Below are positions 3,406 to 40,486 of a stretch of 64,000 bases of DNA, piece after piece. Within the stretch, counting starts at the first letter, position 1. Every line of letters starts with the position of its first letter. A model generated the notes under the pieces. It was not told where the DNA came from, ran no database searches, and worked only from the letters and a program-made list of their open reading frames with translations. This DNA comes from Candidatus Staskawiczbacteria bacterium (GTDB lineage: Bacteria > Patescibacteriota > Minisyncoccia > Minisyncoccales > Staskawiczbacteraceae). The stretch spans positions 8,081-72,080 of the forward strand of contig JAPLZC010000006.1 of the NCBI GenBank assembly GCA_026395215.1, read 5' to 3'. Both the position numbers and the translations under genes were made by a program.

Positions 3406-3888
3406 GTGAGCAGGAACAGCAAGAAGGGTGATGTCCAAACAATGTCGTTAAGCCAAGGTGTGATGTTGGCGATCGACATGAACCGTGAAGCCTTGTTGAA
3501 GGTTAACGGTGGAATTCTGCACGGAATGCAGGTTAACATGGAGCTTGGCTCTGAGAGACCGGGTCGTTCGATTTTGGATCTGAGGAAGGATCCGTACTTC
3601 GACGCCGCGACCAAGGACGAGACCATACGGGTGATCACCTTCAACGGCTCAGCCATGGGCCGTAACGGATGGTTCCGTTTTACCAGCATCTGCATAATCA
3701 GTAATTTTGTGCAGAAGATGTGGGACCCGTGGTTCGTCGACGTCAAAATCGAAGACTCCGACAAACTCCGGTTCACATACGTCAGGGACCACGAAGGCTT
3801 GCCGGTTATGATTGACTGGCACGCGGTCTCAGACGATTACCCGCCTCTTTCGGAGGATACGGGCACTGAGGATGCGGACGAGGAGTAA
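3406..3888 (+). CDS. hypothetical protein, GC-rich cassette b (160 aa from GTG 3406; alternative ATG 3442)
   Basis: GGGAG lies 8 nt before GTG 3406, and GAAGGGTGA lies before ATG 3442. GC-rich coding composition with an acidic C-terminus. No family recognised. Confidence 0.55.
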   Translation: MSRNSKKGDVQTMSLSQGVMLAIDMNREALLKVNGGILHGMQVNMELGSERPGRSILDLRKDPYFDAATKDETIRVITFNGSAMGRNGWFRFTSICIISNFVQKMWDPWFVDVKIEDSDKLRFTYVRDHEGLPVMIDWHAVSDDYPPLSEDTGTEDADEE

Positions 3889-3900
3889 TATCCGCTTTAA

Positions 3901-3948
3901 AGCGCCGGAAGAGTGAGAACATCTCACTCAACCGGCGCTGTTTTTTTT
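3901..3948 (+). terminator. rho-independent terminator after cassette b
   Basis: Nested stems agcgccgg/ccggcgct and gagtgag/ctcactc followed by a T8 run. Confidence 0.85.
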
Positions 3949-17986: not shown

Positions 17987-20578
17987 GTGAATTTCTCTCA
18001 ATATACAAACATATCGGTTGAAGAAACGTTAAGAAGTCTTAAAACTTCAACTTTTGGTCTTTCTGAAAAAGAGGCAGTATTAAGAATAGAAAAATACGGA
18101 TTAAATGAAATAAAATCAAAAAATATTAACGCCATCAAAGTTCTTTTGAGGCAATTAAAATCTCCTTTTACTTATTTGCTTTTAATTGCCGCCTTAGTGT
18201 CTGTTTTAATAGGCCAATTGGTTGATAGTATTGCGGTTTTTGCCTTTATTGTGATTAATGTAGTTATTGGTTTTGTGCAGGAATACAAAGCAGAGAAAGC
18301 GGTATTTATGTTGCAGGAGTTTATACCAAAAAAAGTAAAAGTTTTGCGTGATTCAAAGGAAGAAATAATAGATGAAAAATTTTTAGTACCCGGAGATATT
18401 GTTTTGTTAGAGGCAGGGGACTTGGTTCCGGCGGATTTGAGGGTAGTAAATATGCACAACTTTTTGGTGAATGAATCGGCACTTACAGGAGAATCGGTTC
18501 CTGTTTCTAAAATTACAGAAGCGTTTAATAGTCAGGAAAGTGAGATATTTAAAGCCAAGAATATTATTTTTTCCGGTTCATTAGTTGTGTCGGGCAAGGC
18601 ACAGGCAATTGCCATAGCCACAGGCAAAGATACTGTTTTTGGTGATATTGTTAAAACAATCTCCGGCATAAGAAGAGAGAGCACCTACGAAAAAAGCATT
18701 TTGTTTTTCTGTAAGCTGATAATGAAAATTGTTGCGACAACAATAATTTTAATTTTTGTTGCAAATATATTAATAAAAGGCGTAAGCAATATTTTTGAGC
18801 TTCTTTTGTTTTCAGTTGCTTTAATAGTGAGTATTTTGCCAGAAGCTTTACCAGCCGTTGTAACTTTTGCGCTTTCGGGCGGAAGTTTACGTATGGCAAA
18901 GCAAAACGTGGTTGTAAAGAGATTATCTGCAATTGAGGATTTGGGAAACATAGAAATTTTGTGCACTGATAAAACAGGAACCTTAACGCAGAATAAACCT
19001 TCTTTAGAAAAAACCGTTTCGTCAGATAAAAAAAAGTGTTTTTTATACGGAATTTTGGCCTCGGGTGGAATTTTTCCCGCCACAGCGGGATCCCGCCCTT
19101 GGCGGGAAAATCCTTTTGACTCGGCCTTATATCAAAGGGCTACGGAAGAAATTTTGAGGGAATCAAAAAAATTTAAAATAGTTTCCGAATTACCATTTGA
19201 TTCATACAGAATGAGGTCGGCTTTTTTGGTAAAGAGTATAAAAAATGAAGCATTTTTAATTGTTAAAGGCGCGCCCGAGTCTATTATAAAAAATTGTAGA
19301 AATTTTTCCGCCCAAGGCGGACCAGCTTCGGGCTGGGATAAAAAAGAAATTCAAGAAGATATTGACAGAGAAGGCGTGGAAGGGAAAAGAGTTTTGGCTA
19401 TAGCATATAAAAAAATAGCAAACGAGAAGCGCGCTACAAACGAGGCCATACGAATAGAAGATGAAAAGGGGCTGACCTTTTTGGGTTATTTTGTTTTTGA
19501 TGATCCAATAAAAACTACTGCAAAAGAGGCGATAAGTTTATCTAAAAAGCTGGGAATTAAAATAAAAATTGTCACAGGAGATTCTAAAGAGGTTGCTTGT
19601 TATGTTGCCAGAAAAACAGGGCTTGTTTCGGGCATTGAAGATACAATTTCTGGTCAGGAATTGGAAAAATTATCAAAGGAAGAATTTGAAGACGCATGTG
19701 AAAGCAAAACTATTTTTGCCCGCATTTCCCCAGACACAAAACACAACATAATAAAATCTCTGCAAAAAAAATGTGAGGTTGGATTTATGGGCGAGGGTGT
19801 TAATGACGCGCCGGCTCTAAAAACAGCCGATGTTGGAATTGCCGTTGTTGAGGCGTCTGACATAGCCAGGGAAGCGGCTGATGTTGTTCTTTTGCAAAAA
19901 GATTTGCGGGTTATTATTAACGGAATTAAGGATGGCCGGACTATTTTTGCAAATATTAATAAATATATTAAATGCGCGCTTGCCAGCAATTTTGGTAATT
20001 TTTATTCAATTGCCGTAATTTCCTTGTTCATAAATTTTTTACCAATGCTTCCGGTACAGATTTTGCTTGGGAATATTTTATCGGATTTTCCATTAATTTC
20101 TATTGCAACTGATTCAGTTGACATAGACGAGCTTAAAAAACCAAAAGCCTACCAGTTGTATAATGTTTTGCCGTTGATTATTTCTCTGGCATTAGTCAGC
20201 ACTGTTTTTGATTTTATTTTCTTTTCTATTTTTCATGCGCAACAACCGGGCGTTATACAAACTTTGTGGTTTATTGAAAGCATTTTAACTGAACTTTTGC
20301 TAATTTACATTATCAGAACACGAGGTATTTTTTACAAAGCAAAAAGACCAGGTTTTTGGCTCATTTTCCTCACTGCAATTGATGGCATATTTGTTGTTGC
20401 CTTGCCGTTTTTGCCAATTGCGCAAAGCTGGTTCCATTTTGCAGTTTTGCCAATTATGCCATTGTTGATTGTTTTTTTCCTAATTGGTATGTATTTTATT
20501 GTCAGCGAAATAGTAAAATTAATCTATTTCCATTACCTGCCTGCCGGCAGGCAGGTTGGAAGCCAAAGATTTCTGTGA
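17987..20578 (+). CDS. cation-transporting P-type ATPase (type II, Ca2+/Mg2+-like)
   Basis: Motifs LTGES, CTDKTGTLT, VTGD and GEGVNDAPAL. GTG start. TGA stop. Confidence 0.9.
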   Translation: MNFSQYTNISVEETLRSLKTSTFGLSEKEAVLRIEKYGLNEIKSKNINAIKVLLRQLKSPFTYLLLIAALVSVLIGQLVDSIAVFAFIVINVVIGFVQEYKAEKAVFMLQEFIPKKVKVLRDSKEEIIDEKFLVPGDIVLLEAGDLVPADLRVVNMHNFLVNESALTGESVPVSKITEAFNSQESEIFKAKNIIFSGSLVVSGKAQAIAIATGKDTVFGDIVKTISGIRRESTYEKSILFFCKLIMKIVATTIILIFVANILIKGVSNIFELLLFSVALIVSILPEALPAVVTFALSGGSLRMAKQNVVVKRLSAIEDLGNIEILCTDKTGTLTQNKPSLEKTVSSDKKKCFLYGILASGGIFPATAGSRPWRENPFDSALYQRATEEILRESKKFKIVSELPFDSYRMRSAFLVKSIKNEAFLIVKGAPESIIKNCRNFSAQGGPASGWDKKEIQEDIDREGVEGKRVLAIAYKKIANEKRATNEAIRIEDEKGLTFLGYFVFDDPIKTTAKEAISLSKKLGIKIKIVTGDSKEVACYVARKTGLVSGIEDTISGQELEKLSKEEFEDACESKTIFARISPDTKHNIIKSLQKKCEVGFMGEGVNDAPALKTADVGIAVVEASDIAREAADVVLLQKDLRVIINGIKDGRTIFANINKYIKCALASNFGNFYSIAVISLFINFLPMLPVQILLGNILSDFPLISIATDSVDIDELKKPKAYQLYNVLPLIISLALVSTVFDFIFFSIFHAQQPGVIQTLWFIESILTELLLIYIIRTRGIFYKAKRPGFWLIFLTAIDGIFVVALPFLPIAQSWFHFAVLPIMPLLIVFFLIGMYFIVSEIVKLIYFHYLPAGRQVGSQRFL

Positions 20579-38359: not shown

Positions 38360-38698
38360 ATGGCACGCTTCACAATCACAAACGGTCCCAGCAAATGGGA
38401 GTTTATCTTGGCTATCTTCGACGGGGATTCCCGTGCCCGGAGAGCCGTCACATTCGTTCTTAATGATCCCCGACGTGAACTGTCAGAGGATTATGGAGAG
38501 GTGGTATTGGATGATGCCAATCCTCCTTATCTTACCTTTGTCATCAACGGGGCTGAGAGGGTAGATGGTAGCGATGACAACTGGCATTTCAAGGGTTTTT
38601 ACCCTCACGCCACGGGTCACATCTTTGCGAGGGGTACCTTCTCTACCAAAGACCGCAAAGGATGGGTGGAGTGGGATTGTGACTACTCGAACTCCTAA
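38360..38698 (+). CDS. hypothetical protein, GC-rich cassette h (112 aa)
   Basis: Promoter TTGACA 38218-38223, 16-nt spacer, TAATAT. Strong AAGGAGGTG 4 nt before the ATG. Own terminator. No family recognised. Confidence 0.6.
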   Translation: MARFTITNGPSKWEFILAIFDGDSRARRAVTFVLNDPRRELSEDYGEVVLDDANPPYLTFVINGAERVDGSDDNWHFKGFYPHATGHIFARGTFSTKDRKGWVEWDCDYSNS

Positions 38699-38728
38699 GT
38701 CCTAGATGGTCAGAAGATCAATTCTTTA

Positions 38729-38767
38729 CCTCAGTCAGTATGGAAGCTGATTGGGGTTCTTTTTTTG
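38729..38767 (+). terminator. rho-independent terminator after cassette h
   Basis: 10-bp stem cctcagtcag/ctgattgggg including G-U pairs, followed by a T-rich run. Confidence 0.7.
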
Positions 38768-38797
38768 GAGAAATATGGTAACATTAAAAAATAAATT

Positions 38798-38899
38798 ATG
38801 GAAAAACGACACAGAATATTTGTGGCGATTAATTTGCCGGGGGAGAGTTTGTTCGACGTCCGACATCGAACAAACTTAAAATTTTGGTATAATAAATAA
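38798..38899 (+). pseudogene. displaced 5' fragment of thpR fused to element sequence (33 codons)
   Basis: MEKRHRIFVAINLP matches the thpR N-terminus MEKRHRVFVAINLP. The reading frame runs through hairpin H1. Its TAA stop abuts the ATG of the HUH gene. Confidence 0.6.
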
Positions 38900-39667
38900 A
38901 TGGCTTATATACGTCCACAATTAATTAATGATGAATATTATCATATTGTAAGCAAAACTGTTGGTGATACGGTTGTATTTGAGAAGGAGGACGATTTTTT
39001 TCGAGGTATTTTTTCTATTTATGAATTTAATAATGCTAACCCCGTAAGCATATCTCGGAGACGGCGTGATCGTAAAACGGAAAAGAAACTAGAAAAACAA
39101 AATGTTCAACGTCCGACGTCGAACAATTTAGTTGATAAAAGAGATAGATTTGTAGATATTCTTGCTTTTTCTTTTATGCCGAATCATTTGCATTTAATTT
39201 TGAAACAGTTAAAGGACAACGGAATAACTGAATTCATGAAGAAGGTTAACGGTGGGTACGCAAAGTATTTTAATGAAAGATATAAAAGGCAAGGGCATTT
39301 ATTTAATAAGTTTCGAGCAGTGCACATTGAGGATGACAATCAACTGGAAACCGCCTTCGTGTATGTGCATACGAATTTGATATCTATGATAAAGCCTGGT
39401 TGGAAAGAAAAAGGAATAAATAATTCTGATAAAGTAATAAAATTTTTAGAGAATAATAAGCGGCATAGCTATATGGACTATCTTGGGAAAAAAGCCTTTC
39501 CGTCCGTAACACAAAGAGAATTTTTTCTGGAAGCTATGGGCGGGGTAGATGGATGTAAAACATTTGTTGATGCACGGATAAATCATAAAAAAGAATTAAA
39601 AGACTGGAGTGATATTGTTCTAGAATAATTAAAATTGTTCAACGTCGGACGTCGAACAACTATATTT
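38839..39667 (+). mobile_element. HUH/RAYT-like element with REP-like terminal hairpins inserted in the 5' end of thpR
   Basis: Bounded by 41-bp imperfect direct repeats (38798-38838 / 39668-39708). Hairpin H1 is at 38846-38876 and H3 at 39635-39659, with their loops inverted (tccga versus tcgga). The internal copy H2 is at 39103-39125. Confidence 0.6.
38900..39628 (+). CDS. HUH Y1 transposase-like protein (IS200/RAYT family)
   Basis: HUH motif in FMPNHLHLILKQ and a Tyr motif in FVYVHTNLI. 242 aa. Confidence 0.65.
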   Translation: MAYIRPQLINDEYYHIVSKTVGDTVVFEKEDDFFRGIFSIYEFNNANPVSISRRRRDRKTEKKLEKQNVQRPTSNNLVDKRDRFVDILAFSFMPNHLHLILKQLKDNGITEFMKKVNGGYAKYFNERYKRQGHLFNKFRAVHIEDDNQLETAFVYVHTNLISMIKPGWKEKGINNSDKVIKFLENNKRHSYMDYLGKKAFPSVTQREFFLEAMGGVDGCKTFVDARINHKKELKDWSDIVLE

Positions 39668-40246
39668 ATGGAAAAGAGACATCGAGTATTTGTGGCGATT
39701 AATTTGCCTCATGAGATTAGGAAGGAGCTTTTTGAGTATTCGGAAAAGCATTTGGATTTGCCGGCAAAATGGACTGCAAAAGACAATTTGCATATTACGT
39801 TGGAATTTTTGGGAGCGTTGACTGATGAGGAAGCTGGGGAAGTTTGTTTAGCCGTAAAAGAAGTTGCTGAAAGACATAGCAGTTTTTCTTTGAATTTGAA
39901 TAAAATTTTATATGGGCCTCCTAATCTAAAAGCTGGTCAGGCGCCAAAGTTTGTTTGGGCCGAGGGGGATAAATCAGAAGAGTTGTCAGCACTGCGCGAA
40001 GATTTGGAAAATTCTTTAGCTGAGAAAGTTGCTTTTGTCCCAGAAAACAGAGTTTTTGCTCCGCATATTACGTTGGCCCGCATCAGCTCATGGGAATGGA
40101 AAGCAATTGAACCTGAAGAAAGACCCGAAATAAACGAAAATCTAGATTTACTTTTTACTGTAGAATCCATTGAAGTTATGGAATCGGAAAAAAGAAAAGA
40201 TGGGCAGGTTTACACGGTTTTAGAATCTCATCAATTAAATAATTAA
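39668..40246 (+). CDS. thpR: RNA 2',3'-cyclic phosphodiesterase / 2'-5' RNA ligase family (ThpR/LigT)
   Basis: Two HxT motifs (HITLEFLG, HITLARI). Start taken at ATG 39668 rather than the track start at 39635. Confidence 0.85.
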   Translation: MEKRHRVFVAINLPHEIRKELFEYSEKHLDLPAKWTAKDNLHITLEFLGALTDEEAGEVCLAVKEVAERHSSFSLNLNKILYGPPNLKAGQAPKFVWAEGDKSEELSALREDLENSLAEKVAFVPENRVFAPHITLARISSWEWKAIEPEERPEINENLDLLFTVESIEVMESEKRKDGQVYTVLESHQLNN

Positions 40247-40267: not shown

Positions 40268-40486
40268 ATGTTTGAAGAATTAAAAACGCGAGAACCTGGA
40301 GACAATCCAGACAAAAAATTTACAATTAAAATTATTTGTAGCTGGTGTGAAAAAGATATGGGCACAAAAGAGGCAGAGGAACCAGGGGAGACTCATAGTA
40401 TCTGTCCAGATTGCAAGAAGAAATTTGTCGATGAATTTGAAGAAAACAAAAACACCAATAATCCTGAAAAGGAAGAAGCAGCATAA
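40268..40486 (+). CDS. small zinc-ribbon protein (72 aa)
   Basis: CSWC..CPDC pairs. Backbone composition. Confidence 0.5.
   Translation: MFEELKTREPGDNPDKKFTIKIICSWCEKDMGTKEAEEPGETHSICPDCKKKFVDEFEENKNTNNPEKEEAA

Follow-up and report, generated by a model that had tools for sequence, protein, structure and literature searches.

The window analysed here, 64 kb of a metagenome-assembled Candidatus Staskawiczbacteria (Patescibacteria) genome, contains a small cassette built around a single gene for a RAYT-like enzyme of the HUH/Y1 type, located directly upstream of thpR, an RNA-repair gene that encodes an RNA 2',3'-cyclic phosphodiesterase. The start of thpR is present twice, once on each side of the enzyme gene: copy A lies upstream, copy B forms the 5' end of the thpR gene proper, and the cassette segment (38839-39667) lies between them. 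Three hairpins belong to the cassette, two flanking the gene and one in-frame within it. The 1.9-kb arrangement is base-for-base identical in L168 and L169, assemblies made from two other sequencing runs, making a one-off assembly artefact unlikely.

Repeat finding defines the two copies as a direct repeat of 43 nt (38796-38838 and 39666-39708) with 88% identity and a spacing of 870, scoring z=18.8 against shuffled flanks. Direct reading gives the same picture, as described in an earlier note on this DNA, which counted six differences between the copies; over the first 41 coding nt there are five, at positions 9, 10, 15, 16, and 19. Four of the codon changes from A to B are synonymous (AAA/AAG for K, CGA/AGA for R, CAC/CAT for H, and AGA/CGA for R), and the fifth, ATA/GTA, exchanges I for V. 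Two of them swap Arg codons at the first position, a rare kind of change. Under random substitution, at least four synonymous changes out of five are expected with P=0.009. The last 22 of the 41 nt are identical in both copies.

Beyond the 41-nt repeat, copy A runs on as GGGGGAGA (38839-38846), reading Pro-Gly-Glu in frame, at the point where copy B reads Pro-His-Glu. Pro-Gly-Glu occurs in many thpR orthologues (e.g., L085 and L103). On this reading, copy A may derive from a different allele and span 49 nt, stopping precisely where hairpin 1 has its foot (38846), and the match could also be due to chance, at roughly 1 in 16 to 1 in 64. A search of the window and of 169 loci for an ectopic source of the diverged patch in copy A yielded none. 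The sequence following the internal hairpin (DKRDRFVDI) was compared with the thpR start (EKRHRVFVAI) as a candidate homology arm and rejected, the resemblance being not significant (P~0.08).

The downstream thpR, which encodes a 2H phosphoesterase of the ThpR/LigT type, is intact, being full length against its orthologues, carrying HITL at both H-x-T motifs, and scoring 121.7 bits against TIGR02258 (cutoff 65.7). Among 80 thpR loci taken from metagenomes (L081-L160), the polX-thpR gap was measured in 54 relatives. The gap is compact (44-77 nt) in 23 of these and holds 0.4-2.1 kb of unrelated small-ORF (open reading frame) cargo in the other 31, identifying it as an insertion hot spot; ancestrally, thpR and a PolX-N-terminal-like gene face each other at a distance of 44-77 nt. 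The identities of polX and thpR are incongruent among relatives, pointing to frequent recombination at this spot.

The closest relative, L081, whose thpR is 89% identical at the amino acid level and 83% at the nucleotide level, has no cassette, and the 45 nt upstream of its thpR differ from the flank of copy A at 4 positions. Copy A therefore stands in the native promoter context, and L081 represents the empty site, relative to which the insertion falls within the first ~41-49 nt of thpR. Both placements agree with the earlier note, which had also called for a search of relatives for empty sites and for the duplication; a second thpR start occurs in 0 of 76 relatives with a readable start. Cassettes recur at thpR in two further genomes. 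At L084 (700-1560), a cassette with a different hairpin separates the canonical -10 box of thpR (TGTGATAATATT) from the ATG, and the gene start is not duplicated; at L114 (1-110), a cassette 3' end with a different hairpin lies directly upstream of thpR on a contig that begins inside the RAYT gene. This recurrence suggests either a site preference or an old presence/absence polymorphism.

Table 1. Features of the polX-thpR region in the window (positions are those of the window)
Feature	Position	Strand	Remarks
PolX-N-terminal-like gene, 222 aa	37510..38178	-	synteny anchor
112-aa ORF, no family match	38360..38698	+	cargo of the variable polX-thpR hot spot
Terminator-like stem and T-run ending the 112-aa ORF	38728..38766	+	3' part (ggggttcttttttt) common to L081
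Native thpR promoter/leader	38750..38797	+	extended -10 TGGTAACAT at 38776-38784
Copy A, thpR 5' fragment, codons 1-14, MEKRHRIFVAINLP	38798..38838	+	repeat finding, translation
33-aa ORF beginning in copy A	38798-38899	+	TAA abuts the ATG at 38900
Hairpin 1, cassette 5' flank	38846..38876 (inner 38849-38873)	.	14-bp stem with one C/A mismatch, core GACGTCCGACATC
Extended -10 box TGGTATAAT	38885..38893	+	6 nt 5' of the RAYT ATG; cassette's own promoter, leaderless-type
HUH/Y1 (RAYT-like) gene, 242 aa	38900..39628	+	HUH at 39185-39193; catalytic Tyr155 at 39362-39364
Hairpin 2, in-frame within the RAYT-like ORF	39102..39126	.	encodes NVQRPTSN; loop of residues 69-76
Hairpin 3, cassette 3' flank	39635..39659	.	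6 nt past the stop codon, 8 nt before the thpR ATG
Copy B, 5' end of intact thpR	39668..39708	+	repeat finding, orthologue comparison
thpR, RNA 2',3'-cyclic phosphodiesterase, 192 aa	39668..40246	+	both H-x-T motifs

The 242-aa cassette protein belongs to the IS200/IS605 superfamily of Y1 HUH enzymes. It matches Pfam Y1_Tnp (PF01797) with 33.6 bits (cutoff 23), the match covering residues 83-158 only. The HUH motif is an HLH triplet (H96 and H98), and Y155 is embedded in YVHTN; all three residues are invariant in 70 homologues. An AlphaFold (AF2) model (pLDDT 84, pTM 0.82) places Y155 on a helix spanning residues 146-163. A fold search with this model returns as its best match 4ER8, the E. coli RAYT in complex with a REP hairpin (E=7e-6), followed by the ISDra2 and IS608 TnpA structures (2XMA and 2VJV); a sequence-profile search of the PDB yields only a marginal match to ISDra2 (E=0.036). 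The profile and fold matches together uphold the HUH/Y1 assignment made in the earlier note. Its narrower description as RAYT-like stands in part: the fold is nearest to the E. coli RAYT and cognate hairpins flank the gene, whereas the curated RAYT model NF047646 (NCBIfam equivalog) gives 32.6 bits, far below its cutoff of 80. A helical C-terminal extension of ~80 aa is specific to the Patescibacteria RAYT-like family, and residues 69-76 form the sole low-confidence stretch in the model core. No integrase ORF is present in 38700-39700, by the ORF list and by family search.

The three hairpin copies, including the one read in-frame within the RAYT-like gene, are present as first described. Folded as single-stranded DNA, hairpins 1, 2, and 3 reach -10.5, -6.0, and -6.3 kcal/mol, and their flanks comprise GGGGGAG and CTATATTT. 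An opposite orientation of the terminal hairpins, also proposed, comes down to the central base and is not established: against hairpin 1, hairpin 3 has 3 mismatches as read and 2 when reverse-complemented. Nor do the hairpins form the dispersed population implied by the term REP-like. The 64-kb window contains 0 further copies (chance expectation 0), and a scan of relatives' flanks, rather than of complete genomes, finds 7 dispersed cognate hairpins in 276 kb across 45 loci. Neither the hairpins nor the leader match any Rfam family.

The more novel result extends to the whole family, whose enzyme genes retain a copy of their cognate hairpin in-frame. In 80 family loci taken from species-representative genomes (L001-L080; for example, L001 4001-4729, L041, and L080), hairpins usually lie 30-100 nt upstream of the gene, at ORF nt ~190-230, and 1-30 nt past the stop codon. 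Stems differ from locus to locus and are common to all three positions within one locus. The internal 17-nt core matches a hairpin of its own flanks with at most 3 mismatches in 53 of 63 loci, and hairpins of both flanks in 42 of 63, compared with 25 of 613 comparisons with other loci's flanks. Across 50 distinct internal hairpins, every one of the four Watson-Crick pair types is found in the outer stem, which surrounds the conserved palindromic core GAnnnCnGnnnTC; these hairpins were picked as palindromes, which inflates the percentage of paired positions, and the real signal is their recurrence at one ORF position. In 43 of 52 loci, the centres of the palindromes share one codon phase, and the hairpin encodes the variable 'RPTS' loop of the protein alignment. 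In the RAYT literature searched, we found no mention of an ORF-internal cognate hairpin. Solved complexes of RAYT and of IS200/IS605 TnpA suggest, by analogy, that the hairpins are single-strand DNA recognition sites of the enzyme.

Flanking hairpins form REPIN-like doublets in L012, L028, L049, L051, and L077. A REPIN-like doublet also occurs inside the ORF in L012, L064, and L075 and in protein P0118. Elsewhere in the window, a perfect GC-rich palindrome, ACCTGCCTGCCGGCAGGCAGGT (20535-20556), is read in-frame as LPAGRQ near the 3' end of an 863-aa ORF (17987-20578). The peptide 'ALPAGRQ' is likewise inserted in thpR orthologues P0140 and P0235, and other orthologues carry 'LRQGSAGQAP' or 'SRPSRGSSM' inserts. 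To judge from these readings, in-frame palindromic inserts seem common in these genomes.

The cassette carries its own putative expression signals. Its extended -10 box stops 6 nt short of the RAYT ATG, and the same leaderless-type arrangement recurs without a thpR fragment in L008, L009, L023, L036, and L057, and by sequence reading in L084. The ORF list confirms that the 33-aa ORF beginning in copy A stays open through hairpin 1 and that its TAA abuts the RAYT-like ATG. This TAA falls in the cassette's own short A/T-rich stretch, between the -10 box and the ATG, and not in thpR-derived sequence. Translational coupling from the 33-aa ORF to the RAYT start, as the earlier note suggested, is possible and not required, because the RAYT gene has its own extended -10 box. 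With hairpin 3 only 8 nt from its ATG, thpR is probably now read through from upstream.

The family comprises 907 detectable homologues, and those with a source name, together with the 80 fetched loci, all derive from Patescibacteria. Among the best 120 of the 907, identity is 62-76% besides this genome's own copy, mostly in singleton clusters. The RAYT-like gene is present once in the 64-kb window, and several genomes contain 2-3 diverged paralogues. Paralogues of the same genome carry different hairpins; the two copies in JAPLZF are 68% and 50% identical to the window protein. The several near-identical copies per genome that characterise an insertion sequence (IS) are not seen in the data scanned (the window, the listed clusters, and the paralogues), and subterminal hairpins are present at both ends here (hairpins 1 and 3). 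As for the features of a RAYT, cognate hairpins stand on both sides of the gene, and the tens to hundreds of dispersed REP/REPINs are not found in the window or in the relatives' flanks. L023, L024, and L057 share both cassette flanks, and the closest RAYT homologues (76-77% identity) sit in quite different genomic contexts. Since identical copies are absent, dispersed hairpins are few, and cassettes at orthologous loci such as L023, L024, and L057 have kept their place, the family behaves like a domesticated RAYT and not like an active IS.

A search of ~78 cassettes for gene-end repeats yields one independent second case, L023, besides the window. There, a 90-nt stretch from the 3' end of gene X, which is convergent (C-terminus ...KDEIRNKVGDFLGTKTSRRPMILPVVIEV), is present on both sides of the cassette (2833-2922 and 3823-3912). 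The two copies differ at 14 positions in 13 codons, 11 of them synonymous and 2 non-synonymous (conservative), with P=7e-6, and a 13-nt identical block closes the repeat, on the same side as in the window. L024 and L057 are orthologous to L023: the left-flank gene is 80-95% identical, the same gene stands beside the cassette, and the RAYT is ~70% identical. The gene-end fragment is absent from L024 and L057, leaving L023 as the only one of the three loci with it. The shared adjacency of cassette and gene must therefore be older than the fragment at L023, and this fragment must until recently have belonged to a functional allele. Scanning for additional gene-end repeats at the protein level in six frames gave output dominated by hairpins and no case beyond the window and L023. 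Neutral drift of a target duplication, considered for both loci, is rejected as unlikely, given the synonymous bias of each. A candidate flanking duplication at L162 (1722-3511) was also rejected; the cassette lies among three tandem paralogous genes of 77-79 aa, each followed by the same 58-nt terminator-like repeat, and the locus is a tandem paralogue array with repeated terminators. Two minor matches were noted, a 36-nt terminator-like repeat at L059 and a 20-nt match of unclear meaning at L022.

Neighbouring genes vary as well. The 112-aa ORF upstream is richer in GC (~48%) than its surroundings (~35%), and none of the relatives has a homologue of it at the corresponding position; the L081 gap holds a different GC-rich ORF. 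Between thpR and murC, the window contains a 72-aa zinc-ribbon ORF (40268-40486) that is also present in L084, L087, L100, and L104 and missing from the closest relative, L081, and is another small presence/absence difference.

We consider the doubled thpR start to be the recombinant joint of an empty haplotype with a filled one, where one of the junctions, at the edge of the cassette, is illegitimate, and give this explanation a probability of about one half. The segment between copies A and B is a cassette of the Patescibacteria-specific RAYT-like family, composed of one gene, often with its own promoter, and three locus-specific hairpins. The empty haplotype would have supplied the native promoter and copy A, and the filled haplotype, in which an intact thpR would directly follow a cassette (the layout of L084 and L114), the cassette and copy B; either could have been the recipient. 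One crossover would have been homologous. The other junction, joining thpR nt 41-49 to the foot of hairpin 1, would be illegitimate, formed by homology-facilitated illegitimate recombination after DNA uptake. The synonymous-only differences between A and B would then reflect ordinary divergence between two functional thpR alleles, and thpR would be intact either since it was never cut in the filled haplotype or through restoration by the homologous crossover. The foot of hairpin 1 may be break-prone if the HUH nuclease nicks there. Recombination of this kind, which pairs one homologous crossover with an illegitimate join at the opposite end, is documented (PMC3240628).

Several observations weigh against a recombinant joint. 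Copies A and B differ by 5, 0, and 5 nt over positions 1-19, 20-41, and 42-51, and an identical 20-41 block is found in only 25 of 1,104 thpR orthologue pairs with at least 4 differences in nt 1-19; this rarity makes a crossover or conversion tract inside the repeat likely. No donor haplotype was found, the closest RAYT homologues lying, as stated above, in other contexts. L081 agrees with copy B at all 5 positions that distinguish A from B, and its codons differ from those of A at 6 of 14 and from those of B at 3 of 14; with ~4.4 of 14 expected to differ synonymously (~32% of codons), both copies fall within the expected divergence, and L081 was rejected as an arbiter of which copy is native. 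The phenomenon occurs in 2 of ~78 cassettes, so that any generalisation builds on two cases, and natural transformation in the host organism would be an assumption.

The rarity of the identical block also keeps alive an explanation of the kind put forward in the earlier note, in which a mobile cassette carries its own thpR 5' end and integrates by an att-like, Campbell-type crossover within the 22-nt block, leaving the host start as copy A upstream and the replacement as copy B. The geometry is exact, with differences confined to nt 9-19 and the 22-nt block meeting the left junction in copy A and the body of the gene in copy B; copy A stands in its native promoter context, the L023 repeat likewise ends in an identical block on the same side, and three genomes have cassettes at the 5' end of thpR. 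At the same time, the cassette contains no integrase or recombinase besides the Y1 enzyme, and Y1 enzymes of the IS200/IS605 type are not known to form such joints. A target mimic carried by design is not a general property of the element: ~76 other cassettes, including L084 beside thpR and L024 and L057 beside gene X, lack a gene-end copy. There is no fixed element end either, the distance from the junction to hairpin 1 being 0-7 nt here and ~70 nt in L023, and the agreement of L081 with copy B, the supposed foreign copy, is at odds with this explanation and not statistically decisive. We regard integration of an element-borne thpR start as unlikely, though with a real chance of being correct. 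A broader proposal is a hitch-hiking HUH element that spreads between related Patescibacteria with the adjacent end of a conserved host gene as a homology arm, forms the illegitimate joint through a Y1 nick at hairpin 1, always regenerates its target, and uses the internal hairpin for self-recognition or autoregulation. We hold this proposal to be quite doubtful.

An origin in situ would invoke a ~43-nt target duplication or a copy made by repair synthesis, followed by divergence, with selection retaining copy A as a translated leader ORF through which ribosomes are coupled to the RAYT gene. A and B do share three derived states relative to L081 (positions 18, 21, and 30) in addition to the 22-nt identity, and the 33-aa ORF is open through hairpin 1, with its TAA-ATG in frame with the RAYT gene. 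A leader ORF, however, need only stay open, yet four of the five changes are synonymous and the remaining one is I/V; the L023 copies show the same bias, the adjacency there pre-dates the fragment, and the RAYT gene has its own -10 box. Y1 transposition, moreover, is not known to make a target duplication, and we judge a local duplication very unlikely. The synonymous bias, the age order at L023, and the cassettes without repeats together argue against both in-situ drift and a built-in property of the element. That the window derives from a metagenome-assembled genome, and that the 22-nt shared block is about the size of the smallest assembler k-mers, could indicate an assembly chimera of two metagenome strains. 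The identical 1.9 kb assembled independently from two other sequencing runs speaks against such a chimera, and joining via a shared 22-mer would not yield the junction of copy A, GGGGGAG, and hairpin 1, making this explanation extremely improbable. If the recombinant joint is correct, a 'recoded target duplication' need not mean a new transposition mechanism, and gene-end repeats with synonymous-only divergence, as here and at L023, could serve as markers of inter-lineage recombination in unculturable organisms.

Among known processes, homology-facilitated illegitimate recombination in Acinetobacter, S. pneumoniae, and E. coli resembles the proposed joint (PMC3240628) in that a homologous crossover plus an illegitimate junction would explain a fragment of a foreign allele abutting non-homologous DNA; it differs in being experimental there, whereas here the joint is read from sequence and its junction lies at a hairpin foot. 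Integrative elements in the 3' ends of tRNA and tmRNA genes likewise have a diverged gene end and an identical core as flanking repeats and leave their target intact. They, however, employ tyrosine or serine integrases and defined att cores, with an identical core in every insertion; here, there is a 22-nt identical block, the region 38700-39700 contains no integrase, and most family members have no repeat.

Comparison with IS200/IS605 TnpA elements (IS608, ISDra2, and IS200) reveals a shared Pfam Y1_Tnp domain, a shared fold, and the same organisation of one small gene bracketed by subterminal hairpins. Unlike these elements, the cassette lacks multiple near-identical copies, and its hairpins are near-perfect palindromes around the GAnnnCnGnnnTC core. 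A conserved tetranucleotide that would serve as target was not identified. The diverged direct repeat of 41-43 nt that flanks the unit here is also foreign to them, as IS200/IS605 elements make none, and ~76 other cassettes have no repeat. Rickettsia palindromic elements are in-frame palindromes inside ORFs and share with hairpin 2 the toleration of a palindrome in a permissive loop of a protein-coding gene. The internal hairpin differs from them in occupying one fixed position, mostly in one codon phase (43/52), within the enzyme's own gene, and in matching the flanking hairpins.

RAYTs are domesticated transposases whose host function is a long-standing puzzle. Like RAYT/TnpA_REP (E. coli YafM, 4ER8), the cassette enzyme combines the HUH motif with a single-Tyr Y1 fold and a Y-x-H-x-N motif, is flanked by cognate palindromic hairpins that sometimes form REPIN-like doublets, and may be essentially single-copy, with its position kept at the orthologous loci L023, L024, and L057. 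It differs in its score against the RAYT model (32.6 bits against 80), in its length of 242 aa with the ~80-aa helical C-terminal extension and the hairpin-encoded loop, in the near absence of a dispersed REP/REPIN population, and in the third cognate hairpin inside the ORF. The Patescibacteria family is thus a compact RAYT variant, composed of one gene and three cognate hairpins, one of them in the reading frame, with almost no dispersed REP. With one gene and three hairpins, it offers a simple substrate set for biochemistry, and it may be intermediate in kind between IS200-like elements and classical REP/RAYT systems.

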